Shown: positions 5,371 to 55,207 of the stretch, in pieces | Numbering within the stretch: position 1 is the stretch's first letter | Layout of the letters: each line of letters begins with the position of its first letter | DNA from: an uncultured SAR86 cluster bacterium | GTDB lineage: Bacteria; Pseudomonadota; Gammaproteobacteria; Magnimaribacterales; D2472 | Length of the DNA stretch: 64,000 nucleotides | Direction of reading: 5' to 3' | Assembly: GCA_902558095.1 (NCBI GenBank) | Contig: CACECP010000003.1 | Location: 80,308-144,307 of the forward strand | Translations under genes and position numbers: made by a program | Notes under the pieces: generated by a model | The model's database searches: none | What the model was told of the DNA's origin: nothing | The model's input: only the letters and a program-made list of their open reading frames with translations

Positions 5371-8107
5371 TATTAGTAATACATCTGTGACAAATTTCTT
5401 TATGAATACTGCTCTTTCCTACTGAAATGTCTCTATGCCAACACCGAGTGCATTTGTCATGTTCTGAATTTGTAATAACAATATTTAAAGAAGATTCTTT
5501 TTTTATATTTGCTTCTGAACATATAAAAAGAAAATGAAGTTCATTACCTAATTTTTCTAAAATTTTAAAATCTTCATCATTTGCTCCAATATTTACAATC
5601 GCATCAAGTGATCCTTTAAGTTTATTATCATTTCTAAGTTTTTCTATGGATTGATTAACAGAATCTTTTATTTCAAAAAGCCTTTTCCATTCATCGGAAT
5701 CAATCTTTGAATTGCTATTATTGTTGTTACTAAGATAATTTGAGAGGAATACTGACTCCTCTTGATTAATAAGATCTGAACACGATTGCCATATTTCTTC
5801 AGCAGTATATGAAAGAATTGGTGCTATTAGTCTAATTAAAATATTTAATAATTCTTCTAAGCTTGTTTGGCATGACCTTCTTGCCAATGAATCAGTTTTA
5901 CATGTATATAATCTATCTTTAACGATATCTAAGTAAATGCCTCCAAGCTCATTTACGCAGAAATTATGAATGTTTTGAACAACTTTATGATATGAATATG
6001 AGTTATATAAATCCAATACTTTTTCTTGAAGTTTGCTTGCTTCAATAATTATCCATTTATCTAACTCGACTCGATTTTCGAAATCAATTTTATTTTTAGT
6101 AGAAAAATCATTTATATTTCCAAGAATAAATCTAAAAGTATTTCGTATTCTTCTATATTGATCAGATGCTTGTTTTAGAATTTCATCTGAAGCGACCATC
6201 TCACTCCTAAAATCAGTAGATGCAACCCATAATCTTAATATGTCTGCGCCTAAGTTGTCCCAAACCTTCTGAGGTGAAACAACATTACCCAGTGATTTTG
6301 ATTGTTTTCTTCCATTCTCATCAACTACAAATCCGTGAGTTAATACTGACTTATATGGCGCATCTCCATTTATAGCAATACTAGTTAATAAAGATGACTG
6401 GAACCACCCCCTGTGCTGATCCGATCCTTCTAAATATAGATCAGCTACAATGTCTTCATCAAAATGCTTTGAGGATACTGCATAATGAGTTACACCTGAG
6501 TCAAACCAAACATCTAAAGAATCCTTAATTTTTATGTAATTATCAGCATCGGATATAAAATCTTTTAGATCTAATTTGTCCCAAATTGAGATGCCATTCT
6601 TTTCAATTTCATTTGCAAATAAGTGAAATAGTTTTGATTGATCTGGATGAATTTCACCAGTTTCTTTATGAACAACCAGGGTTATTGGAACTCCCCAGTT
6701 CCTTTGTCTTGAAATACACCAGTCAGGTCTATCTTCTAACATGGATTCAATCCTTTGAAGCCCCCATGAAGGTTCCCAGCTTACAGTGTCAATTGTTTTT
6801 TTTGCATCATTTAGTAAATTATTTTTATCCATTGAAATGAACCATTGAGGAGTAGAGGTAAAAATAAGTGGAGTTTTATGTCTCCAACAATGAGGATATG
6901 AATGGCTATATTCCTCAAGACTGACAAGAGAATTTGTTTCTTTTAATTTTTCTATAACTAATGGATCTGCTTTCACAGCAGGCAAACCTTTCAAAAAATC
7001 AATTTCATCTTTAAAAAGCCCTAAGCTATTCATCGCTTTTATTGGCCTAATATTATTTTTCTTACATATTAGATGATCATCAACGCCGTGAGCAGGTGCA
7101 GTATGCACGCATCCTGTTCCAGTCTCTGTCGTGACATGATCACCATGAAGTAATACTGATTTTCTATCTAAAAAAGGATGTAGGAGTTGAATATCTGAAA
7201 TTAATTTACCAGGTACCTTGGATATTTCTGTGCCAACCTTTCCCCATCTTTCCATGCATTCATCAATCATTTCAGAAGCAATAACTACGTGCGTATCATC
7301 AACATTTATCAATGAATAATCTAACTCTGCATTAATACAAACCGCAACATTTGATGGGATAGTCCATGGTGTGGTCGTCCAAATTACAAAAGAAATTGAT
7401 TCTGGTTTATTTGTATTAAAAATATCTTTCAACTTGGATATTGATTCTTTGTCAGCTTCAAATGAAACATCAATAGATTTTGAAGTTTTATCCTTATACT
7501 CAACTTCTGCTTCAGCCAAAGCAGAACCACAGTCCTGACACCAATGAACTGGTTTTTCACCTTTTTCAATGTGTCCAGCATCATAGATCTTTCCTAATGC
7601 CCTTACAACATCTGCCTCAAAATTTGAATCAAGGGATTTATATGGATTGTCCCAATCACCTAATATTCCTAGTCTTTTAAAATCATTTAATTGATTATTT
7701 ATTTGTGATTCTGCATATTCTTTGCAGGCATTTTGAAAAGTTTCTTTATTCTTAACTAAATCGCTATTTTTACCATGCTTCTTTTCAACATTTAACTCAA
7801 TCGGTAGTCCATGACAGTCCCAACCAGGAATGAATGGTGCGTTTAAGCCCTGAAGTGTCTTATTCTTGATAGTTATATCTTTTAAAACTTTGTTTACTGA
7901 ATGACCAAGATGGATTGATCCATTGGCATACGGAGGCCCATCATGAAGTAAAAACAATTTTCTATCTTCGTATTTTTGTCTAATTTTTTTGTAAAGATTT
8001 TTTTTCTCCCATAAATCAAGAATTTCAGGCTCCTTTTTTGGTAAACCAGCTTTCATTGAAAAATCTGTTTCAGGTAGATTTAATGTATCTCTATAATTAA
8101 TAGTCAT
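5336..8107 (-). CDS. ileS: Isoleucine--tRNA ligase (type 1)
   Basis: LHDGPPYANGSIHLGH, GWDCHGLPIE, WCISRQR, EGSDQHRGWFQSS, C-terminal Zn finger CTRC..CHRC. Confidence 0.98.
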   Translation of the reverse strand: MTINYRDTLNLPETDFSMKAGLPKKEPEILDLWEKKNLYKKIRQKYEDRKLFLLHDGPPYANGSIHLGHSVNKVLKDITIKNKTLQGLNAPFIPGWDCHGLPIELNVEKKHGKNSDLVKNKETFQNACKEYAESQINNQLNDFKRLGILGDWDNPYKSLDSNFEADVVRALGKIYDAGHIEKGEKPVHWCQDCGSALAEAEVEYKDKTSKSIDVSFEADKESISKLKDIFNTNKPESISFVIWTTTPWTIPSNVAVCINAELDYSLINVDDTHVVIASEMIDECMERWGKVGTEISKVPGKLISDIQLLHPFLDRKSVLLHGDHVTTETGTGCVHTAPAHGVDDHLICKKNNIRPIKAMNSLGLFKDEIDFLKGLPAVKADPLVIEKLKETNSLVSLEEYSHSYPHCWRHKTPLIFTSTPQWFISMDKNNLLNDAKKTIDTVSWEPSWGLQRIESMLEDRPDWCISRQRNWGVPITLVVHKETGEIHPDQSKLFHLFANEIEKNGISIWDKLDLKDFISDADNYIKIKDSLDVWFDSGVTHYAVSSKHFDEDIVADLYLEGSDQHRGWFQSSLLTSIAINGDAPYKSVLTHGFVVDENGRKQSKSLGNVVSPQKVWDNLGADILRLWVASTDFRSEMVASDEILKQASDQYRRIRNTFRFILGNINDFSTKNKIDFENRVELDKWIIIEASKLQEKVLDLYNSYSYHKVVQNIHNFCVNELGGIYLDIVKDRLYTCKTDSLARRSCQTSLEELLNILIRLIAPILSYTAEEIWQSCSDLINQEESVFLSNYLSNNNNSNSKIDSDEWKRLFEIKDSVNQSIEKLRNDNKLKGSLDAIVNIGANDEDFKILEKLGNELHFLFICSEANIKKESSLNIVITNSEHDKCTRCWHRDISVGKSSIHKEICHRCITNIDEEGEQRSFV

Positions 8108-43312: not shown

Positions 43313-43388
43313 TGGTGGGTCGCACAGGATTCGAACCTGTGACCAATTGGTTAAAAGCCAACTGCTCTACCAGCTGAGCTAGCGACCC
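43313..43388 (-). tRNA. tRNA-Lys(UUU)
   Basis: GGGTCGC TAGCTCAGCTGGTAGAGC AGTTGGCTTTTAACCAAT ... GGTTCGAATCC ... GCGACCC ACCA; 76 nt, anticodon TTT, encoded CCA. Confidence 0.98.
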
Positions 43389-43415: not shown

Positions 43416-44069
43416 TTATTCCATATTTTTCAATAACTGCAAGGCCAAAGACGATGCAGTATTATTAGGATATTCTCTCACAACGAAATTATACTTATCT
43501 TTTGCTTTATCAACCTCATTAGATTTTAAATAAATGTCTCCAATTTTTTTGTGAGCTAAAGGAACCCTATAATGATTAGGATAAGAGCTTATTAATTCCA
43601 TGAAAAAATCTTTTGATTCGTCTAACTTATTGTTTATCAGAGAAATCTCTCCAAGCCAGAAATATGAAAGAGGTTTTTTTTCATCATCATTGAAACTTTT
43701 AACAAAGAAATTAAACAGCGTAAAAGCTTTGTCATAATCTTGGGCTCTTAATGCCTGATCTGCTGCACTGAATACCTGATCTTTGCTATTGGGGTCCTCT
43801 ATTCCTTTAAATCTAATATCTGTATCTATTCCAAGATCATCAATATTTCCAGACTCTTCATCAGAAGAATTCATAGATTCATCAATTAATTTTTCAATAA
43901 GATAATTTTGCGATTCTATTTTATTCCTAAGTTCAGCTATTTCTAATTCCAATTCTTGAATTTTAAGGAATAAGATGTCTGTTTTTGCAGACACATTTTC
44001 ATTTGCATTGGAAGTGCTTGATAGAAAACTTATTAAAACTATGAATATTGATAAGAATCTACTATTCAT
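43416..44069 (-). CDS. cpoB: Cell division coordinator CpoB (YbgF)
   Basis: Signal peptide, coiled coil, TPRs (YFWLGE...YP); follows pal. Confidence 0.85.
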   Translation of the reverse strand: MNSRFLSIFIVLISFLSSTSNANENVSAKTDILFLKIQELELEIAELRNKIESQNYLIEKLIDESMNSSDEESGNIDDLGIDTDIRFKGIEDPNSKDQVFSAADQALRAQDYDKAFTLFNFFVKSFNDDEKKPLSYFWLGEISLINNKLDESKDFFMELISSYPNHYRVPLAHKKIGDIYLKSNEVDKAKDKYNFVVREYPNNTASSLALQLLKNME

Positions 44070-44557
44070 TAATTGATTTCTACTCTTCTATTCTTTGAAT
44101 AACTAGTCTCATCTTGACCAAATGCAACTGGTTTTTCTTCCCCGAAGCTTTTAACTGTAATTCTGTTTTTGCTTATACCATTTAAAACAAAATAGTCACT
44201 AACAGCTTCAGCTCTTCTTTGACCCAGGGCTAAATTATATTCTCTTGTACCTCTTTCATCTGCATGACCAGATAGAGTGATATTAATTGATGAGTTCTCG
44301 TTTAATGCGTTTACCGCACTTTTTAAAGTTTGTATAGACTTGCTTGTTAAAGATGATTTATCAAATTCAAAATAAACAGTTGCATTTGCAAATACTGCCA
44401 TAGTGTCATAATTGATGTTCTCAGATCTAGCAGATGATGCCTTAACAGTTTTTACTTCATCAGAGCCAACATTTTCTTCTGTTACATTCATACTTGAACA
44501 GGACGACAAAAATATTAATACAACGACAAAATGTAATTTATTTCTTAAAAAAAACAT
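44069..44557 (-). CDS. pal: Peptidoglycan-associated lipoprotein
   Basis: Lipobox LSSC, YFEFDKS, GHADERGTREYNLALGQRRA, NRRVE. Confidence 0.96.
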   Translation of the reverse strand: MFFLRNKLHFVVVLIFLSSCSSMNVTEENVGSDEVKTVKASSARSENINYDTMAVFANATVYFEFDKSSLTSKSIQTLKSAVNALNENSSINITLSGHADERGTREYNLALGQRRAEAVSDYFVLNGISKNRITVKSFGEEKPVAFGQDETSYSKNRRVEIN

Positions 44558-44573: not shown

Positions 44574-45830
44574 TTATCTTAAAAAACCTGACCAGGCTGG
44601 CTCTCTAACAGAGCCCTCTGCAGCAGGAAGTTTAAATTTAGCCCCACTCAAAGTAACTCCCGAAAGCAGTCCCGTACCTTCTTCTTTTATAGAATAAACT
44701 ATAACATTTCCATTGGGCGAAATACTAGGAGATTCATCCATTTGAGATTCAGTAAGTGGTCTAATAAAATTTTCATCAAAATACTTAAGCGCTATTTGAA
44801 AACTTGTATTTGCCCTATGAACAAAAACTATGCCTTCATTATTAGGCAAATAAGCACCTTTTGCATTGTAATTTCCTTCAAAAGTTATTCTTTTCGGTCT
44901 AGCATTAGACTTTCTTAGGTTTATCTCATAGAGTTGAGGCGATCCTGATCTTCCTGATGTAAACATTATTTTTGATCCTTTTTTTGACCAGGTTGATTCA
45001 GTATCAATGGCGTAATGATTTGTAAGTCTGGTTAAATTCTTATTTTTTAAATTTAAGATATAAATTTCTGCATTACCATCCTGGTACATTGTTAAAGATA
45101 AAAACTTACCATCTGGTGACCATGCAGGAGAACTTATTTGAGAAGAATTTTCAATAACAACTTCTCTATTTCCAGAGGCTATATCTTGAATAAATACTTT
45201 TGCAATGCCTGTTTCAAATGAAACATATGCTACTTTTTTTGAGTCAGGAGACCATGATGGTGAAATTATTGGTTCTGAGCTTTCTAATAGTATCTGCTCA
45301 TTCTTACCATCGGCATCTGCAACTACAAGTCTATAATCCTTATTTTGTGTTACGTATAAAATTTTTGTTGATGCAATGCCTTTTATTCCAGTTATTTCTT
45401 CATATATTCCGTCACTTATATAGTGTGCTAGTTGTCTATTCTTGTTTGGAATACCAAAGACAGTTGAAGATCTTACTTTGGATCCTTTTCTAATATCATA
45501 AACCTTGTATTCAGCTTTAATATTTGAAGATTCGTTAATAAGATTACCAATAATTAAATAATCTATGTTCAAAATCCTAAAATCATTAAATACAATTTCA
45601 TCTTCATCTTTTGGAAGTGATAAAAGATCGTCATTGTCAAATATCTTAAACTCACCTGATCTCATAAGATTGTTCTTGATAATTTGATCAATTTCTGAGG
45701 TAGCCTTGTTATCTCCATTAAACTTAATAATTGCCACCCTAAATGGATCTTCAGTTCCCTGGGTTATTTCTAAAATAAGTTCTGAGGAAATAAAACCAGA
45801 AAAGCACACTAATAAAAGAAATTTTTTCAT
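44574..45830 (-). CDS. tolB: Tol-Pal beta-propeller protein TolB
   Basis: SPSWSPD..KVAYVSFE, PAWSPDG repeats, C-terminal EPAWS. Confidence 0.95.
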   Translation of the reverse strand: MKKFLLLVCFSGFISSELILEITQGTEDPFRVAIIKFNGDNKATSEIDQIIKNNLMRSGEFKIFDNDDLLSLPKDEDEIVFNDFRILNIDYLIIGNLINESSNIKAEYKVYDIRKGSKVRSSTVFGIPNKNRQLAHYISDGIYEEITGIKGIASTKILYVTQNKDYRLVVADADGKNEQILLESSEPIISPSWSPDSKKVAYVSFETGIAKVFIQDIASGNREVVIENSSQISSPAWSPDGKFLSLTMYQDGNAEIYILNLKNKNLTRLTNHYAIDTESTWSKKGSKIMFTSGRSGSPQLYEINLRKSNARPKRITFEGNYNAKGAYLPNNEGIVFVHRANTSFQIALKYFDENFIRPLTESQMDESPSISPNGNVIVYSIKEEGTGLLSGVTLSGAKFKLPAAEGSVREPAWSGFLR

Positions 45831-46453
45831 GATGGATTAAAAGTTATTACAATATTTTTAAAATTTGATGAATAAATAGATAAAGGAATCTTATTAAAAA
45901 AATTAAATGTTTCTACTCTTTGAACAGCTTTTAGAGCTGAATTATCAAATCTAATATTTCCACTACTCCTTATAAGATTTGCTTTAATAACTCTTCCATT
46001 ATTATTAATTGTCAGTCTTAAGTCACACACTAGACCATCCTGAATGTTCATTGGTTTTCTCCATGCTGACTGAATGGTTTGAATAATTAATGAGCTATAC
46101 ATCTCTACCTGACTTTGCTCTGACTCTGAAGATATCAAATCATCCTCTTTTAAAAGATCTTCAAAGCTTACAGACTCAATAAGAGAGTCAAATGAAATCG
46201 ATTTTTCTGAAGTATTATTTTGAATTATTGGCTCAGAAGATTTTATTTCTTGAGTTTGAGTCTTCTGAATTATAGGATTCGAATTATTTTTTTTAACTTT
46301 TTCTTCAAAGACTAAATTAACATTTACTGGTTTGCTTAATACCGATCTCTCTTGAGATTCAAAATAAAAAAACCCTAATAAATATAAGATAATCATTCCA
46401 TGAATGATAAATGATATAAAAGAAGCTTCTAAATAAACCTTATTTACTCTCAT
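45827..46453 (-). CDS. tolA: Short TolA / TonB-C-terminal domain protein
   Basis: N-terminal TM helix with S-x3-H (SFIIH), C-terminal SSGNIRFDNSALKAV; between tolR and tolB. Confidence 0.8.
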   Translation of the reverse strand: MRVNKVYLEASFISFIIHGMIILYLLGFFYFESQERSVLSKPVNVNLVFEEKVKKNNSNPIIQKTQTQEIKSSEPIIQNNTSEKSISFDSLIESVSFEDLLKEDDLISSESEQSQVEMYSSLIIQTIQSAWRKPMNIQDGLVCDLRLTINNNGRVIKANLIRSSGNIRFDNSALKAVQRVETFNFFNKIPLSIYSSNFKNIVITFNPS

Positions 46454-46865
46454 AACCAGATGTTACTATTCCAATTTTTGTAATGCCTATGCTTTGAACT
46501 GATGCCATAGCTTTGGCAACAGCATCAAATGAAACATCTTTGTCACTTTGAAAAACAACCTCTATTTCAGGATTAGCATCATAAATAACTTTAGATTTTC
46601 TTTTTAATTCATTTAAATCAATCGATAAAGACTCATCGCCTATGTTAATAAAATAGTCCCCATTCTCATTAATAGATATTACCAATGGTTCACTTTGGAC
46701 GCTCATTTTAGTTGTGTCTGTTTTTGGAAGATTTACTTCAATACCTTGAATTAAGAGTGGAGAAAGCACCATAAAAATAATTAACAAAACTAGCATTACA
46801 TCTATGTAAGGAACTACATTTATCTCAGCCTTAAGATTTTTTTTCTTAGCTAACCTATATATCAT
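46440..46865 (-). CDS. tolR: TolR
   Basis: EINVVPYIDVMLVLLIIFM, VNLP. Confidence 0.95.
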   Translation of the reverse strand: MIYRLAKKKNLKAEINVVPYIDVMLVLLIIFMVLSPLLIQGIEVNLPKTDTTKMSVQSEPLVISINENGDYFINIGDESLSIDLNELKRKSKVIYDANPEIEVVFQSDKDVSFDAVAKAMASVQSIGITKIGIVTSGYESK

Positions 46866-47533
46866 TAATATTTAATAGACTGTTTATAGAAAATACTCGC
46901 TAGCTCTTCAGCAAAGATTAAAGTGCTTTGACTAATATTTTCTGATTCGGAAGTAAATTTATTGAAAGCTACCACAGCAGGTATAGCTGCGAATAACCCC
47001 ATACCAGTTGCTATTAAAGCCTCAGATATACCAGGAGCCACTGCATTTATTGTGGCTTGGGTAGCATCAGACAATCCTTGGAATGATGTCATAATGCCCC
47101 ATACAGTTCCTAATAAACCTACGTATGGACTCACTGAACCAACATTTGCCAAAAATGGTAAATGTTTATTCATCTCCTCTTCATCTGAGGCAATAGATAC
47201 CCTCATTGATCTATTGATACTTTCTAGATCAAGTTCAGATATGTTTTGATCAGACTTTATGCTTTTGTATTCATCAAATGAGTTTTTAAACAAGCTCATA
47301 GCTCCATAAATAGAGCCATCATTTGAGACTTCTTTATATAAATTATCTAAATCTTTACCACTCCAAAATTTCTTAAGAAAATTATCATTTAATTTTTTTA
47401 TTTTTCTAAAAAAAATAGATCTTTCTACAATTACTATCCAAGATAAAATTGAGGCGATAAATAAAATTAACATTACTATCTTTACAACAATACCTGCTTC
47501 TAAAAAAAGGTTTAAAACTGATACATCATCCAT
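46865..47533 (-). CDS. tolQ: TolQ
   Basis: SPYVGLLGTVWGIM, VAPGISEALIAT.MGLFAAIPA. Confidence 0.96.
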   Translation of the reverse strand: MDDVSVLNLFLEAGIVVKIVMLILFIASILSWIVIVERSIFFRKIKKLNDNFLKKFWSGKDLDNLYKEVSNDGSIYGAMSLFKNSFDEYKSIKSDQNISELDLESINRSMRVSIASDEEEMNKHLPFLANVGSVSPYVGLLGTVWGIMTSFQGLSDATQATINAVAPGISEALIATGMGLFAAIPAVVAFNKFTSESENISQSTLIFAEELASIFYKQSIKY

Positions 47534-47541
47534 TATTTTTC

Positions 47542-47958
47542 CTATTTAAATATTAATAATAAATCATCTGAGAACCTTTGTGGTTTTTTTGTCATAAGAT
47601 CTATAAGACATACATCAATTCTTCCACTAACATATTCTTTATTATTTTCATCGACTATTTTTTGATAAAAAATCATTCTAGCATCAGAGCCTTTTTCAAC
47701 TGATGATTTGATTATTAGGTTATCTCCAAGCTCAGCTGCTGCGGTGTATTCCAAGTTAATTTTTTTAATAACAAATGCTAAATTAAGTTTTCTTAATTTA
47801 GTTTGGGAAACATTATTGGTTGATAAAAACTCTGATCTTGCTCTTTCAAAATATTTTAAATAATTAGAGTGATACACAACTCCTTGAAAATCAGTATCTT
47901 CAATATATATTTTTAGCTTAAGATCACTACACTTGATAATTTTGCTCATGCAATTCAA
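47542..47958 (-). CDS. ybgC: Tol-Pal-associated acyl-CoA thioesterase
   Basis: IYIEDTDFQGVVYHSNYLKYFERARSE. Confidence 0.92.
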   Translation of the reverse strand: MNCMSKIIKCSDLKLKIYIEDTDFQGVVYHSNYLKYFERARSEFLSTNNVSQTKLRKLNLAFVIKKINLEYTAAAELGDNLIIKSSVEKGSDARMIFYQKIVDENNKEYVSGRIDVCLIDLMTKKPQRFSDDLLLIFK

Positions 47959-48352
47959 TATCTTCTTGAAAAAGTTCTAAAATTATTTGTATAAAATCTG
48001 GCCATAACAAGTCCACTGTAACAAGGTTATTTTTAATATCTTTGTTAATAGAATTTGCAAGAACTCTAACTTTAATTGGTCTATTATTAAATTTATAGAC
48101 AAGAGCTGGTTTTAGATTTTCAGATTTTGACGATGAAAGTACCTGCTCCCACCAATCAGGTCTTGGTTCTGCTCCAGATCCGTATGCCTTGCACTCTATG
48201 CACCAACGCCCAAGCATAAGATCTGGCAACTCTTTAGTTCTTGTTTGTTCTAGAATTCTTTTAACTGGATTCTTTAAATTTAAATCCTCTATTAATGCAT
48301 TGGCAATTTGTCTTTCAAATGCAGCTCCTTTATTTCTAGAATTAATAGACAT
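47927..48352 (-). CDS. PD-(D/E)XK nuclease, Hjc/phage-type putative Holliday junction resolvase
   Basis: NSRNKGAAFERQIA (N-terminal helix with Glu), LPDL, IECK, followed by W..Q and PALVYK; occupies the ruvCAB slot. Confidence 0.75.
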   Translation of the reverse strand: MSINSRNKGAAFERQIANALIEDLNLKNPVKRILEQTRTKELPDLMLGRWCIECKAYGSGAEPRPDWWEQVLSSSKSENLKPALVYKFNNRPIKVRVLANSINKDIKNNLVTVDLLWPDFIQIILELFQEDIELHEQNYQV

Positions 48353-48354
48353 AG

Positions 48355-49092
48355 CTATGCTTTGGCCTCAAAGTCATCAGGGAATTCAGCATTTGTGTGG
48401 ACCTCTTGGACATCATCTAAGTCATCCATAAACTCCATTATGTTAAGAACCTTTTCAGACATTTCATGATCTATGTTCACAGACGTTTCCGCTCTAAGTG
48501 TTAACTGCGCATTAATATATTTAACCTCATTTTTCTTAAAAATCTCTAAAACATTATTAAAATCATTAGGTTCTGTTGTAACTTCAAAAAAATCTTCCTC
48601 TTCAATGTAATCGTTTGCTCCAGACTCAATTACTAAATCCATCAAATCTTCATCTGAAATTTCTTTTGAAATATGTATTAATCCAAGTTTTTTAAATAAA
48701 TATGCTACAGATCCATCTGTACCAAGATTGCCACCAAATTTAGAGAAAGCATGCCTTACATCTGATACAGTTCTATTTCGGTTATCTGTCATAGTCTCAA
48801 CAAGAATAGCAACCCCTCCTGGTCCGTATCCTTCAAATATTATTTCTTCCAAAGCTCCTGTTTCACCAGTACCAGAGCCTTTTTCTATTGCTCGTTTTAT
48901 TGTATCTTTTGGCATATTTGCTGAATTAGCTTTTTCTAAAGCTAATCTCAGTCTTGGATTGTCATTAGGATCAGGTCCATCTTTTGCAGCAACAGTAATT
49001 TCTCTAATTACTTTAGTCCAAACCTTACCTCTAGAAGCATCTTGTCTAGCTTTTCTGTGTTTTATGTTAGCCCACTTTGAATGACCTGCCAT
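48355..49092 (-). CDS. yebC: YebC/PmpR family protein
   Basis: MAGHSKWANIKHRK, EGYGPGGVA, TDNRNRT, DDVQEV. Confidence 0.97.
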   Translation of the reverse strand: MAGHSKWANIKHRKARQDASRGKVWTKVIREITVAAKDGPDPNDNPRLRLALEKANSANMPKDTIKRAIEKGSGTGETGALEEIIFEGYGPGGVAILVETMTDNRNRTVSDVRHAFSKFGGNLGTDGSVAYLFKKLGLIHISKEISDEDLMDLVIESGANDYIEEEDFFEVTTEPNDFNNVLEIFKKNEVKYINAQLTLRAETSVNIDHEMSEKVLNIMEFMDDLDDVQEVHTNAEFPDDFEAKA

Positions 49093-49095
49093 AAA

Positions 49096-50862
49096 TTATT
49101 CTTCCTTGTGTGTGCTAATAATTTTTAATTCATCGAGTTGATCTTTTTCAACTTTACTTGGTGCATCTGTTAGCAAACAGGCAGCACTCTGTGTTTTAGG
49201 GAAAGCAATTACGTCTCTTATATTAGTAGTATCAGTAACTAGCATAACTATTCTATCTAGACCAAATGCTATTCCTCCATGAGGAGGACAACCAGATGAA
49301 AGAGCTTTTAATAAGAATCCAAATTTACTTTCAGCATCTTCTTTTGAAATATTAAGAACATTAAAAATAATTTTTTGCATTGCATTGTCATATATTCTCA
49401 AGGAGCCTCCTCCTATTTCATATCCGTTTAAAACAACATCATAAGCATGAGCAATTGAATCCTTAGGATTATCTTCTAAATCTTTAGTTGAGCATTTTGG
49501 AAGTGTGAACGGATGATGGAGCGGTGTTAAATCACCTTCTTTATTGGTTTCAAACATTGGAAAATCTACAATCCAACAAGGCGCCCATTTGGTCAAATAT
49601 AAATCTAAATCTTCCCCAAGTTTTTTAATCAAACTGCTCATTGATAGATTTACGACTGATTCAATGCCAGCTCCAAAGAAAATTAAATCGTCAGTTTTGA
49701 TTTCTAAAGATTTAATTATGTTTGCTACCGTTTCTGGTTTTAAAAACTTTAGTATTGGTGATTGAATACCATTTTCTAGATCGCTCACATCATTTATCTT
49801 TATATAAGCCAATCCTTTTGCACCAAGCTTTGAGACAAATTTTGTATAGTCATCAATTTGTCCTCTAGATAATGAATTGCCATTAGGAACTTTTAGAGCA
49901 ACTACTCTTGATCCTTTTTTCTTTGCTGGTTCAGAAAAAACTTTAAATTCTTCATCTTTAACTATTTCAGATATATCAACCAATTTAAGAGGTATTCTTA
50001 AATCAGGTTTATCACATCCATAATCCCGCATAGCATCATGCCAATTAATTACTTCAAACTTTTCTAGTTTGTCACCACAAAACTCTTTAATGATATCTTT
50101 GATCATTTTTTCACTGATCTTCATTATTTCATCTTGATCAATAAATGATGCTTCAATATCTATTTGGGTGAACTCTGGCTGTCTATCAGCCCTTAAATCT
50201 TCATCTCTAAAACATCTTGCTATCTGATAATACTTATCAAGGCCGCCTATCATTAAAAGTTGCTTAAAGAGCTGAGGTGATTGGGGTAAAGCATAAAAAC
50301 TACCAGGTTGAACTCTGCTAGGCAAAATATAGTCTCTGGCCCCTTCTGGAGTAGCTTTTGTCAATATAGGTGTTTCAATTTCATGGAAATCATTTTTATC
50401 TAGATAATTCCTAATTAAGGAAGTAATTTTTGACCTAGTTATTATTCTCTCATTCATTTCTGGTCTTCTTAGATCCAGAACTCTATTTTTTAACCTAACG
50501 TCCTCATTTACTTCTTGATATTCATCAATTGGAAATACTGGAGTGCTTGCTTTACTTAGAATAACTAAATCTTTTACTTCGATTTCAATCTCGCCTGTGT
50601 GCATATTTTTATTAATTGTTCCTTCTAACCTTTTGCGAACACCACCTTTTATTTGGACAACATATTCATTTCTTATTGATTCGGCTAATTTAAAAGATTT
50701 TTCATTATCAGGGTTCACTACAGCTTGGCATATACCTTTTATATCTCTTACATCAAGGAAAATTACGCCACCATGATCTCTTCTTCTATGAATCCAACCA
50801 CAGATTGTTACTTCTTCTTTAAGATTTGAGGATGTTATTTCACCGCAATAATGAGATTTCAT
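49096..50862 (-). CDS. aspS: Aspartate--tRNA ligase (probably non-discriminating)
   Basis: RRDHGGVIFLD, TPEGARDY, LPQSPQLFKQLLM, PPHGGIAFGLDR. Confidence 0.97.
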   Translation of the reverse strand: MKSHYCGEITSSNLKEEVTICGWIHRRRDHGGVIFLDVRDIKGICQAVVNPDNEKSFKLAESIRNEYVVQIKGGVRKRLEGTINKNMHTGEIEIEVKDLVILSKASTPVFPIDEYQEVNEDVRLKNRVLDLRRPEMNERIITRSKITSLIRNYLDKNDFHEIETPILTKATPEGARDYILPSRVQPGSFYALPQSPQLFKQLLMIGGLDKYYQIARCFRDEDLRADRQPEFTQIDIEASFIDQDEIMKISEKMIKDIIKEFCGDKLEKFEVINWHDAMRDYGCDKPDLRIPLKLVDISEIVKDEEFKVFSEPAKKKGSRVVALKVPNGNSLSRGQIDDYTKFVSKLGAKGLAYIKINDVSDLENGIQSPILKFLKPETVANIIKSLEIKTDDLIFFGAGIESVVNLSMSSLIKKLGEDLDLYLTKWAPCWIVDFPMFETNKEGDLTPLHHPFTLPKCSTKDLEDNPKDSIAHAYDVVLNGYEIGGGSLRIYDNAMQKIIFNVLNISKEDAESKFGFLLKALSSGCPPHGGIAFGLDRIVMLVTDTTNIRDVIAFPKTQSAACLLTDAPSKVEKDQLDELKIISTHKEE

Positions 50863-50875
50863 GATAGTTTCCTAT

Positions 50876-51166
50876 TTAATCCTTAATTTTATCTTGTTTA
50901 GAGCCTTTCTTGGAGTTTGTTTTGGAAGTTTCTTTAGATTTATTATCATTTGAGGATTCATTTGTTGAAATATTCTTCTTTTTTCCTGTTTTAAAGTCTG
51001 TTTCATACCAACCACCACCCTTTAGTCTGAAAGATGGTGCAGAAATTAGTTTTTTAAGACTTTTTGAATTGCATTTTGGACAAATTATTTTAGGTTTGTC
51101 ACTTATTTTTTGTATTATTTCTATCTCATGTCCACAATTTGAACATTTGTAATCATAAATAGGCAT
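50876..51166 (-). CDS. FmdB-family zinc-ribbon protein
   Basis: MPIYDYKCSNCG...CPKC...FRLKGGGWYETDF; upstream of aspS as in pseudomonads. Confidence 0.9.
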   Translation of the reverse strand: MPIYDYKCSNCGHEIEIIQKISDKPKIICPKCNSKSLKKLISAPSFRLKGGGWYETDFKTGKKKNISTNESSNDNKSKETSKTNSKKGSKQDKIKD

Positions 51167-54199: not shown

Positions 54200-55207
54200 T
54201 TATTTTGATTTACTTGTTATGTAAGAAGATCTTATTTCTTTGACAAGTTTATTCTTAACCTTTGCATTTTCTTTTAAGAACAAGCTAGCTTTTGTTTTAC
54301 CTTGTCCGATAGTTTCTCCATCTAATTTATAAAATGCACCAGATTTCTCAACTAATCCAAGTTTATTTCCATAATCTAATATTTCACCTTCTTGGTTAAT
54401 TCCCATTCCATACATAATTTGAAATTCAGCTTGTTTGAATGGTGGAGATACCTTATTTTTGACAACTTTTACTCTCGTCTCATTTCCAATTACCTCATCT
54501 CCTTCTTTCACTGCCCCAATTCTTCTAATATCTAATCTTACTGATGAATAAAATTTAAGAGCATTACCGCCTGTTGTAGTTTCAGGACTTCCAAACATTA
54601 CACCAATCTTCATTCTTATCTGATTAATAAAGACAACGGTAGCACCAGATCTTTGAATGTTTCCAGTAATTTTTCTTAACGCTTGAGACATTAATCTTGC
54701 TTGAAGACCAACATGATGATCTCCCATTTCGCCTTCTATTTCTGCTCTTGGTACTAACGCTGCAACTGAATCAATAATTACTAAATCAACACTTTTTGAT
54801 TTAACTAACATATCTGCAACCTCAAGAGCTTGCTCACCTGTATCAGGCTGAGATAAAAGAAGTTCATCTACATTAACTCCAAGTTTTTCTGCATATTGAG
54901 GATCTAAAGCATGCTCAGCATCTATAAAGGCACATGTTCCACCTTCTTTTTGACATTGAGCAATTATTTGCAGTGTTAAAGTTGTTTTACCAGAGGACTC
55001 AGGTCCATATATTTCTGTTACTCTTCCTTTTGGTATTCCGCCTATACCTAATGCTATGTCGAGACCAATAGATCCGGTTGAAATTGATGGAATGTCAAGA
55101 TTTTCTCTATCGCCCATCCTCATCACTGTTCCTTTACCAAAGTGGCTATCTATATCTGCAATAGTATCCTTTAGAGACTTTGGATTTGTATCTTTTGATT
55201 TAGGCAT
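54200..55207 (-). CDS. recA: Recombinase RecA
   Basis: [45 protein letters not shown]. Confidence 0.99.

Follow-up and report, generated by a model that had tools for sequence, protein, structure and literature searches.

RuvAB together with a RuvC or RecU resolvase is counted in the near-universal core of bacterial recombination, and a locus of an uncultured SAR86 cluster bacterium raises the question of what has taken over when ruvC, ruvA and ruvB are gone from their usual place between yebC and ybgC. The stretch analyzed here (hereafter the window) comprises 64,000 nucleotides of assembly GCA_902558095.1 (contig CACECP010000003.1, positions 80,308 to 144,307 of the forward strand), and in this place it carries one gene for a PD-(D/E)XK nuclease of 141 amino acids (aa). 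A first-pass annotation made from the sequence alone had proposed that a viral-type nuclease replaced ruvC-ruvA-ruvB in situ, and comparison across the order upholds this proposal: RuvABC was found in 0 of 151 genomes and the nuclease in 138, the nuclease gene adjoins yebC in 22 of 22 chromosomal loci, and its sister group is viral. In-situ replacement of RuvABC at the genomic level is thus about as well supported as comparative genomics allows. Based on its position, its co-occurrence with the loss, the constraint on its sequence and a weak but consistent similarity to the archaeal resolvase Hjc, the nuclease is probably a junction resolvase.

The genes that define the locus are as follows.

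47927-48352, minus strand: candidate resolvase open reading frame (ORF), 141 aa, PD-(D/E)XK nuclease (Pfam PDDEXK_15), with an ATG start, assigned with Pfam and PHROGs
48188-48316, minus strand: codons of the catalytic core, with coordinates computed from the ORF start (E13 at 48314-48316, D44 at 48221-48223, E53 at 48194-48196, K55 at 48188-48190)
48355-49092, minus strand: yebC (YebC/PmpR family; NCBIfam NF001030, 339.6 bits; Pfam)
47542-47958, minus strand: ybgC, a thioesterase gene that opens the tol-pal cluster (TIGR00051, 98.9 bits, cut-off 68.7; Pfam 4HBT_2)
49096-50862, minus strand: aspS (aspartate-tRNA ligase), 588 aa, the upstream flank, named by synteny with relatives and from the first-pass annotation

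Replacement of RuvABC between yebC and ybgC

The ancestral content of the slot, proposed earlier to be ruvC-ruvA-ruvB, can be read from other members of the class. Twelve single-contig class genomes among the listed RuvC matches were used for the comparison. yebC adjoins RuvC in 11 of these 12 loci, and the order yebC-ruvC-ruvA-ruvB-ybgC-tolQRAB-pal-cpoB is present in seven and, without ybgC, in an eighth, so that the three ruv genes fill the slot in 8/12 (ruvA and ruvB were verified with Pfam in two loci and assigned by size and position elsewhere). This order agrees with a published context analysis, the available excerpts of which place yebC and ruvC in one operon in about half of RuvC-bearing organisms and name YbgC, TolB and TolQ as the top neighbours of RuvABC (PMC3403352).

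The window's own genome (1.094 Mb in 24 contigs, scored 80.3% complete) gave no match to RuvC or RuvA_N, and tblastn with RuvC, RuvA and RuvB from two class relatives recovered no remnant from it (best E 0.016). Its weak RuvB_N matches lie in open frames of 526, 808 and 638 aa and were read as proteins other than RuvB. Since a single incomplete genome proves little, relatives were sampled at three levels: the order (151 genomes from four families, f1 to f4, and 21 genera, 55 of them high-quality, single-contig genomes included), the family (121 genomes, 10 genera, 26 high-quality) and, as a control, the class (301 genomes, all at least 90% complete except the window's own). In the order sample, RuvC and RuvB_C were each found in 0/151 genomes and RuvA_N over its cut-off in 0/151, with one sub-threshold match at 19.8 bits; in the family sample, RuvC and RuvA_N were each found in 0/121 and the ruvB equivalog over its cut-off in 0/121 (best 37 bits against 299). 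Weak RuvB_N and ruvB matches within the order score no more than 37 bits against 299 and come from open frames whose lengths are about 420, 526-551, 636-661 or about 800 aa; they were read as other AAA+ proteins. Outside the order, RuvC is present in 296/298 class genomes (296/301 for the whole control; 292/297 when G498, G344, G267 and G488, which are flagged as unpublished, are left out). The class genomes lacking it are three members of the SAR86 order and two fragmented assemblies of 180 and 310 contigs, and genomes as small as 0.3-0.4 Mb keep it. RuvABC is lost order-wide in the genomes sampled and is present outside the order.

It could be argued that RuvABC is present and was missed, either in incomplete metagenome bins, which make up most of the sampled genomes and include a window assembly scored at 80.3%, or through divergence past the detection of the models. 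Yet RuvC, RuvA and RuvB over cut-off occur in 0 of the 55 high-quality order genomes, including the single-contig G001, G008, G029, G122, G126 and G127; the slot is contiguous and free of ruv genes in all 22 loci; the same models detect RuvC in nearly every other class genome, the smallest included; and the tblastn search of the window's genome brought up no remnants. Such an oversight is accordingly very improbable. As to the completeness score itself, 28 markers are listed as missing in a published study, according to which 732 SAR86 genomes systematically lack 27 of them (PMC11582366); this implies that the figure of 80.3% understates the true completeness of the window's genome.

The nuclease shows the opposite distribution. 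PDDEXK_15 was detected in the 138 order genomes across all four families (f1 37/40, f2 37/40, f3 35/40, f4 28/30) and 21/21 genera, and in 106/121 genomes of the family sample, 24/26 of the high-quality ones among them. With the ORF in 53/55 high-quality order genomes and RuvABC in none of the 151, the arrangement that would have spoken against a replacement, namely intact ruvABC elsewhere in the genome together with a sporadic ORF, was not encountered. Outside the order, where homologues are distant and sporadic, PDDEXK_15 matched 2/297 scored class genomes, G412 (L103) and G388 (L107), one of them below the cut-off, and both keep RuvC. Another such homologue was noted in a Prochlorococcus single-cell genome (L102, a 130-kb contig; 30% identical). 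The named relatives matching the alignment comprise single-cell genomes and bins labelled 'Gammaproteobacteria bacterium', including SCGC AAA168-P09, AAA076-P13 and TMED112, which we take to be SAR86. The four-family structure of the sample agrees with the published SAR86 order Magnimaribacterales (PMC11582366).

Inspection of 24 nuclease loci, which represent 23 distinct places, showed that the position is as stable as the gene. yebC lies directly upstream in all 22 chromosomal loci (f1 15, f2 3, f3 2, f4 2), ybgC lies directly downstream in 19 of them, and the slot is unbroken in 22/22. The sole place not beside yebC is a second copy in genome G013, which two loci cover. In one f4 locus (L025 of genome G129, positions 5960-7080), tolQ directly follows the nuclease and a ybgC homologue was not detected; in another locus (L011), the nuclease ORF is shorter, at 124 aa, and ybgC was likewise not detected.

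In the window, the ORF coordinates bear out the gene order reported in the first pass, aspS-yebC-ORF-ybgC-tolQRAB-pal, as well as the tight packing of the genes. The yebC stop codon occupies 48355-48357 and the first base of the nuclease ORF is 48352, 2 nt after yebC. At its 3' end the ORF shares 32 nt with ybgC when the latter is read from its TTG start, and 23 nt when the next in-frame ATG is used. The composition of the ORF is host-like, as had been noted (GC content 0.324 against 0.321 for the window; GC content at third codon positions 0.211, within the 0.177-0.234 of the neighbours), the gene is single-copy in the 1.09-Mb assembly, and no phage gene flanks it in the operon according to the window ORFs and the Pfam and NCBIfam scans. 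The downstream part of the cluster, in which tolR to cpoB were named by order and by same-cluster matches in relatives, is arranged as follows.

46865-47533, minus strand: tolQ (Pfam MotA_ExbB match)
46440-46865, minus strand: tolR
45827-46453, minus strand: tolA
44574-45830, minus strand: tolB
44069-44557, minus strand: pal
43416-44069, minus strand: cpoB/ybgF

A tRNA-Lys gene (anticodon TTT; 43313-43388, minus strand) directly follows cpoB at the end of the tol-pal cluster and is the sole tRNA and the sole Rfam match in the 64-kb window. Upstream of aspS, a 96-aa ORF (50876-51166, minus strand) encodes a product with two CxxC pairs and a tail rich in lysine and serine, and judging from its translation it looks like a small zinc-ribbon protein. 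In four marine metatranscriptome runs from four studies searched over 47400-49200, contigs cover yebC, and only one extends into the nuclease ORF, by 28 nt, which falls short of the bridging rule and is neutral as to its transcription. Promoter-like sites occur at chance level (42 found against 40.9 expected), the scan being uninformative in such AT-rich DNA, and the same limit applies to the finding of no terminator-like site on the minus strand between yebC, the nuclease ORF and ybgC.

The nuclease family and its possible likeness to Hjc

The window protein matches Pfam PF24608 (PDDEXK_15), described as a phage putative PD-(D/E)XK endonuclease, over residues 4-109 with 39.9 bits (gathering cut-off 27; E 5.1e-10). 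This is its sole Pfam family at E ≤ 1, and 82/82 aligned diverse relatives also match the model. The active-site pattern recognized in the first pass thus belongs to a defined family, and its motifs are KGAAFER (E13), LPDL (D44) and IECK (E53 and K55). In a full-length alignment of the 82 sequences with a mean column identity of 27%, K8, G9, E13, R32, D44, E53 and K55 are invariant, and E13, D44, E53 and K55 are also invariant in a smaller set (14/14). Such an invariant set is more than chance would be expected to leave and reads as the PD-(D/E)XK signature plus an extra glutamate on a predicted N-terminal helix.

Other models gave little to name the protein by. No NCBIfam model matches it, the RuvC (PF02075), RusA (PF05866) and RecU (PF03838) models gave no match at E ≤ 1, and the model of the Mrr-type restriction nuclease, Mrr_cat (PF04471), did not match it either. 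PHROGs placed it in phrog_244 (E 4.5e-14), a family that carries the label 'RusA-like Holliday junction resolvase'; this is a misnomer for a PD-(D/E)XK protein, given that the window protein has no match to Pfam RusA. A profile search of 1.84 billion representative proteins returned 1600 clusters at E ≤ 0.001, public records either leave the close homologues without a name or call them 'hypothetical protein', and among plasmid sequences no homologue was found. COG4636, considered from the available excerpts of PMC551604, is a different PD-(D/E)XK family and not relevant here.

The profile built from the 82 sequences was compared with PDB sequences and gave seven matches at E ≤ 1, five to archaeal Hjc (1gef E 0.041, 4tkd 0.19, 2wcz 0.8, 1hh1 0.82, 4tkk 0.84) and two to ribosomal protein L25; a shallow profile (A1) had no pertinent match (best E 0.45). 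In 3/3 printed Hjc alignments the glutamate of KG-x-x-ER stands in register, as do the D and the E-x-K, the underlying matches being weak (E 0.041-0.84). Pfam Hjc weakly matches 6/82 family members (best E 2.4e-4), and the language-model neighbours of the protein are viral Hjc (0.87) and RecU (0.85) clusters, at values below the level at which the tool gives more than a lead. Of the Hjc layout claimed in the first pass, the catalytic residues line up in weak sequence-profile alignments, and membership in the Pfam family did not hold; the profile matches with their motifs in register suggest a weak likeness to Hjc. The L25 resemblance concerns the C-terminal half of the family profile, residues ~73-125 (~47978-48136), which weakly resembles PDB chains 6yhs and 6v39 (E 0.17-0.24), and Pfam Ribosomal_L25p matches 5/82 members. 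It may be chance, or a hint of a nucleic-acid-binding, beta-rich extension.

Archaeal Hjc (PF01870; 1gef/1ipi, 1hh1, 2wcz, 4tkd) has a size similar to that of the SAR86 nuclease (123-143 aa) and a single PD-(D/E)XK domain, and in the printed profile alignments an N-terminal KG-x-x-ER helix is followed in both by (P)D and an E-x-K strand at equal spacing. Unlike Hjc, the SAR86 nuclease is bacterial, chromosomal and located in the ruv locus, and its conserved WW-x-Q...P-x-L-x-YKF segment and C-terminal part are unaligned in 2/3 printed alignments. A phage counterpart is Hjc_15-6 of Thermus phage Tth15-6 (PDB 7bgs, 7bnx), which the available excerpts of PMC8805305 describe as a phage-derived, 'archaeal-type' PD-(D/E)XK enzyme that cleaves X-shaped DNA, with the motifs E10-SD40-E53VK55 against E13-PD44-E53CK55 in the SAR86 nuclease. 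Hjc_15-6 was not among the PDB profile matches at E ≤ 10, with no detectable sequence relationship to the SAR86 nuclease, and it is a phage gene serving a phage, whereas the SAR86 gene is fixed in the host in the place of RuvABC.

RecU has a PD-(D/E)XK fold. In Firmicutes and Mollicutes it displaces the RNase H-fold RuvC lineage-wide, a non-orthologous displacement, and according to the available excerpts these lineages keep RuvAB and carry recU away from the ruvAB locus (PMC3403352, PMC1193525). In SAR86, RuvA and RuvB are lost as well and the newcomer, which Pfam RecU does not match, occupies precisely their former place. If the nuclease is a resolvase, the displacement of RuvC would be of the kind known from RecU; what goes beyond that case is that the RuvAB motor is gone too, the newcomer is phage-derived and the vacated slot is occupied. 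RusA is a phage-derived resolvase able to stand in for RuvC in E. coli. It has another fold, belongs to another family (PF05866) and is an accessory gene of lambdoid and cryptic E. coli prophages, not a lineage-wide replacement. RuvABC itself shares with the nuclease the genomic position after yebC and before ybgC-tolQRAB and the same presumed cellular task. The proteins are unrelated, one 141-aa gene stands against three of about 180, 200 and 350 aa, and the SAR86 nuclease has no ATP-driven branch-migration motor.

Phage relatives, selection and descent

A pattern scan of IMG/VR gave at least 598 stretches, of which at least 533, on viral contigs, encode a relative of the nuclease, and the family is overwhelmingly phage-borne. 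Of the best 80 viral loci, none has aspS, yebC, ybgC or tol neighbours. A 135-row nuclease tree unites the 15 chromosomal copies of the four families in a single clade with a Shimodaira-Hasegawa-like approximate likelihood-ratio test (SH-aLRT) support of 99 and a stem of 0.55; the clade also holds nine unlabelled database representatives. Sister to the group of all chromosomal copies are ten viral contigs (L124-L133; SH-aLRT 96) with 53-54% identity, a GC content of 0.34-0.40 and lengths up to 42.8 kb, and the joint clade has a support of 99. The tree is unrooted; that a single bacterial clade is nested among diverse viral copies makes phage-to-host the more likely direction of transfer.

L128, from the sister group, carries genes for a virion structural protein, an endolysin and tail fibres, and those on L123 include a tail fibre, a holin and an endonuclease. 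Both are real phages. The nuclease copies of L123 (57% identical; GC content 0.43) and of another viral contig, L135, branch within the group of SAR86 chromosomal copies, where the nodes concerned have weak support; this nesting may reflect recapture from host to phage and might help in identifying SAR86 phages. The second copy in G013 (38% identity; L030, G013:C4:46000-58400, at 6017-6436) lies on a 72.7-kb contig in a phage-type module, together with genes for a RecE-like exonuclease, a minor tail protein and a primase/helicase, and it could represent a prophage or a co-binned phage of the SAR86 host group. Homologues in cultured phages are 29-43% identical to the nuclease. In Roseobacter phage CRP-406 the gene is near another PD-(D/E)XK nuclease, SSB and a primase/helicase, and in phage C72C1 it is near a Sak-like annealing protein and SSB.

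In an aspS+yebC host tree of the same chromosomal loci every family has a support of 100; in the nuclease tree f1 has 99, f4 100 and f2 89, f3 is not resolved, and the branching inside f1 is the same in both. f4 groups with f1 in the host tree (97), and the short nuclease alignment places f4 otherwise at weak nodes of 83-87. The trees show no supported conflict with one acquisition and vertical descent thereafter. The nonsynonymous divergence (dN) of the nuclease from six same-family orthologues is 0.067-0.113, no higher than that of yebC (0.076-0.127) or aspS (0.091-0.144), with ybgC at 0.227-0.354; the synonymous divergence (dS) is saturated. The nuclease is under strong purifying selection at a housekeeping level of constraint.

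These results bear on the idea that the ORF is left over from a phage, either decaying or selfish and without host function, to which the mostly viral family and the phage-borne second copy in one genome lend some colour. A remnant would not be expected to stay intact in the same position across four families and 21 genera with a dN no higher than that of aspS or yebC, and the host-like composition, the lack of phage genes nearby and the single chromosomal clade, consistent with vertical descent, argue against it as well. We regard this explanation as scarcely credible.

Junction processing in SAR86 without RuvABC

The enzyme that creates the need for resolution is encoded in the window itself.

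54200-55207, minus strand: recA, the recombinase making the junctions that need resolution (TIGR02012, 529.1 bits against a cut-off of 325.3)

Considering that RecA is present and RecR was found in 5/5 genomes (the presynaptic pathway being checked via RecR only), junctions should form. RuvX/YqgF is present in 5/5 genomes and RusA (PF05866) in 0/5. RadA/Sms was found in 0/131 order genomes and in 0/55 high-quality ones (E ≤ 1e-40); its weak matches are Lon-sized and RecA-sized proteins. RecG is retained in most of the order, in 116/151 genomes at E ≤ 1e-140 (f1 13/40, f2 40/40, f3 36/40, f4 27/30), and is missing from five f1 genera, with 0/8 in the window's genus and 0/1, 0/10, 0/3 and 0/4 in the others. 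The other four f1 genera have it in 13/14 genomes and f2 to f4 together in 103/110. RecG was also not found in the window's own genome, where the best 'RecG' match, of about 1090 aa, is probably Mfd by its size and matched region. The partners suggested in the first pass for branch migration, RecG or RadA, are consequently unavailable in the window's genome. Loss of RuvAB is rare elsewhere: in the available excerpts of a survey of 117 species, only two genomes with RecA were without RuvAB, and both kept RecG (PMC1193525), and those of another analysis put the share of bacteria without RuvAB, for the most part parasites, below 2% (PMC3403352).

Several observations weigh against a resolvase function for the nuclease. 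Its position in the slot could be the outcome of one insertion-with-deletion event and not a sign of function. RuvX in 5/5 and RecG in 116/151 genomes mean that other junction-handling routes exist in most of the order, and 13/151 order genomes, two of the 13 at least 90% complete, have no match to the nuclease. Each PDB match to Hjc is non-significant alone (E 0.041-0.84), Pfam Hjc (PF01870) gives no match to the window protein at E ≤ 1, and Mrr_cat, a restriction endonuclease domain, matches 6/82 family members too, with a better best E than Hjc (2.2e-6). The 'resolvase' names that databases give to the family are automatic annotations, and we know of no PF24608 member that has been tested biochemically.

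These points would suit a conserved host nuclease of phage origin with another role, either Mrr-like or structure- or modification-dependent, acting in defence, fork processing or DNA uptake. Such an enzyme would have landed in the slot by a ruvCAB-deleting event, with the junctions left to RecG where it is present, to RuvX/YqgF and to helicase-topoisomerase dissolution. The Mrr_cat matches and the retention of RuvX and RecG fit this picture, yet in the PDB profile search Hjc alone recurs (5/7 at E ≤ 1) and no restriction-enzyme or Mrr-type chain appears, and the nuclease is a bare 141-aa catalytic domain without a recognition domain. The phage contexts point both ways: the L128 homologue is surrounded by genes for structure and lysis and is not part of a recombination module, whereas its counterparts in other phages keep company with a RecE-like exonuclease, a Sak-like annealing protein, SSB and a primase/helicase. 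Housekeeping-level constraint in exactly the lineage without RuvC, and retention of the nuclease also in genera without RecG, also speak against another role, which we judge unlikely.

If the nuclease is instead a junction resolvase, an ancestor of the SAR86 order would have taken a small PD-(D/E)XK endonuclease from a phage, and this enzyme would have taken the place of ruvC-ruvA-ruvB between yebC and ybgC. The nuclease would act like archaeal and phage Hjc, binding the four-way junctions made by RecA as a homodimer, and the metal site formed by E13, D44, E53 and K55 would nick two opposing strands to give ligatable duplexes. Recombination and fork-repair intermediates would in this way be released without the RuvAB motor. 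The Hjc-type fold, dimerization and junction specificity are predictions from the similarity to Hjc, and the nuclease presumably makes the loss of RuvABC tolerable.

A further step can be proposed for the window's genus and its four sister genera. Because RuvAB, RecG and RadA are all missing there while RecA and RecR remain, recombination might end without a dedicated branch-migration motor, the domesticated phage Hjc-like nuclease cutting the junctions where RecA leaves them. This proposal is tentative, and we lean somewhat against it.

In the literature, nothing was found that joins SAR86 with the Holliday junction, ruvC or RuvB, the 'resolvase' matches being unrelated by title and abstract, and no published mention of a RuvABC replacement in SAR86 was found. 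The terms 'ruv', 'resolvase' and 'recG' have no occurrence in the main text of PMC11582366, and the loss of RuvABC is probably already listed in its supplement. Since a cultured SAR86 isolate exists (PMC11582366), the idea is directly testable.

SAR86 is a free-living order among the most abundant bacteria of the surface ocean, and it lives without RuvABC and RadA and, in part, also without RecG. If the nuclease is a resolvase, the locus would be a clean natural case of one viral gene replacing a three-gene machine, PF24608 would gain a testable cellular function, and the removal of 'essential' repair markers by genome streamlining would have an explanation; the finding would also bear on the interpretation of recombination rates and completeness estimates in SAR86. 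If recombination in the window's genus and its sister genera does end without a motor, SAR86 would be the first known free-living bacterial lineage with 'resolvase-only' late recombination, a natural minimal system showing that a globally abundant organism can dispense with the RuvAB motor.

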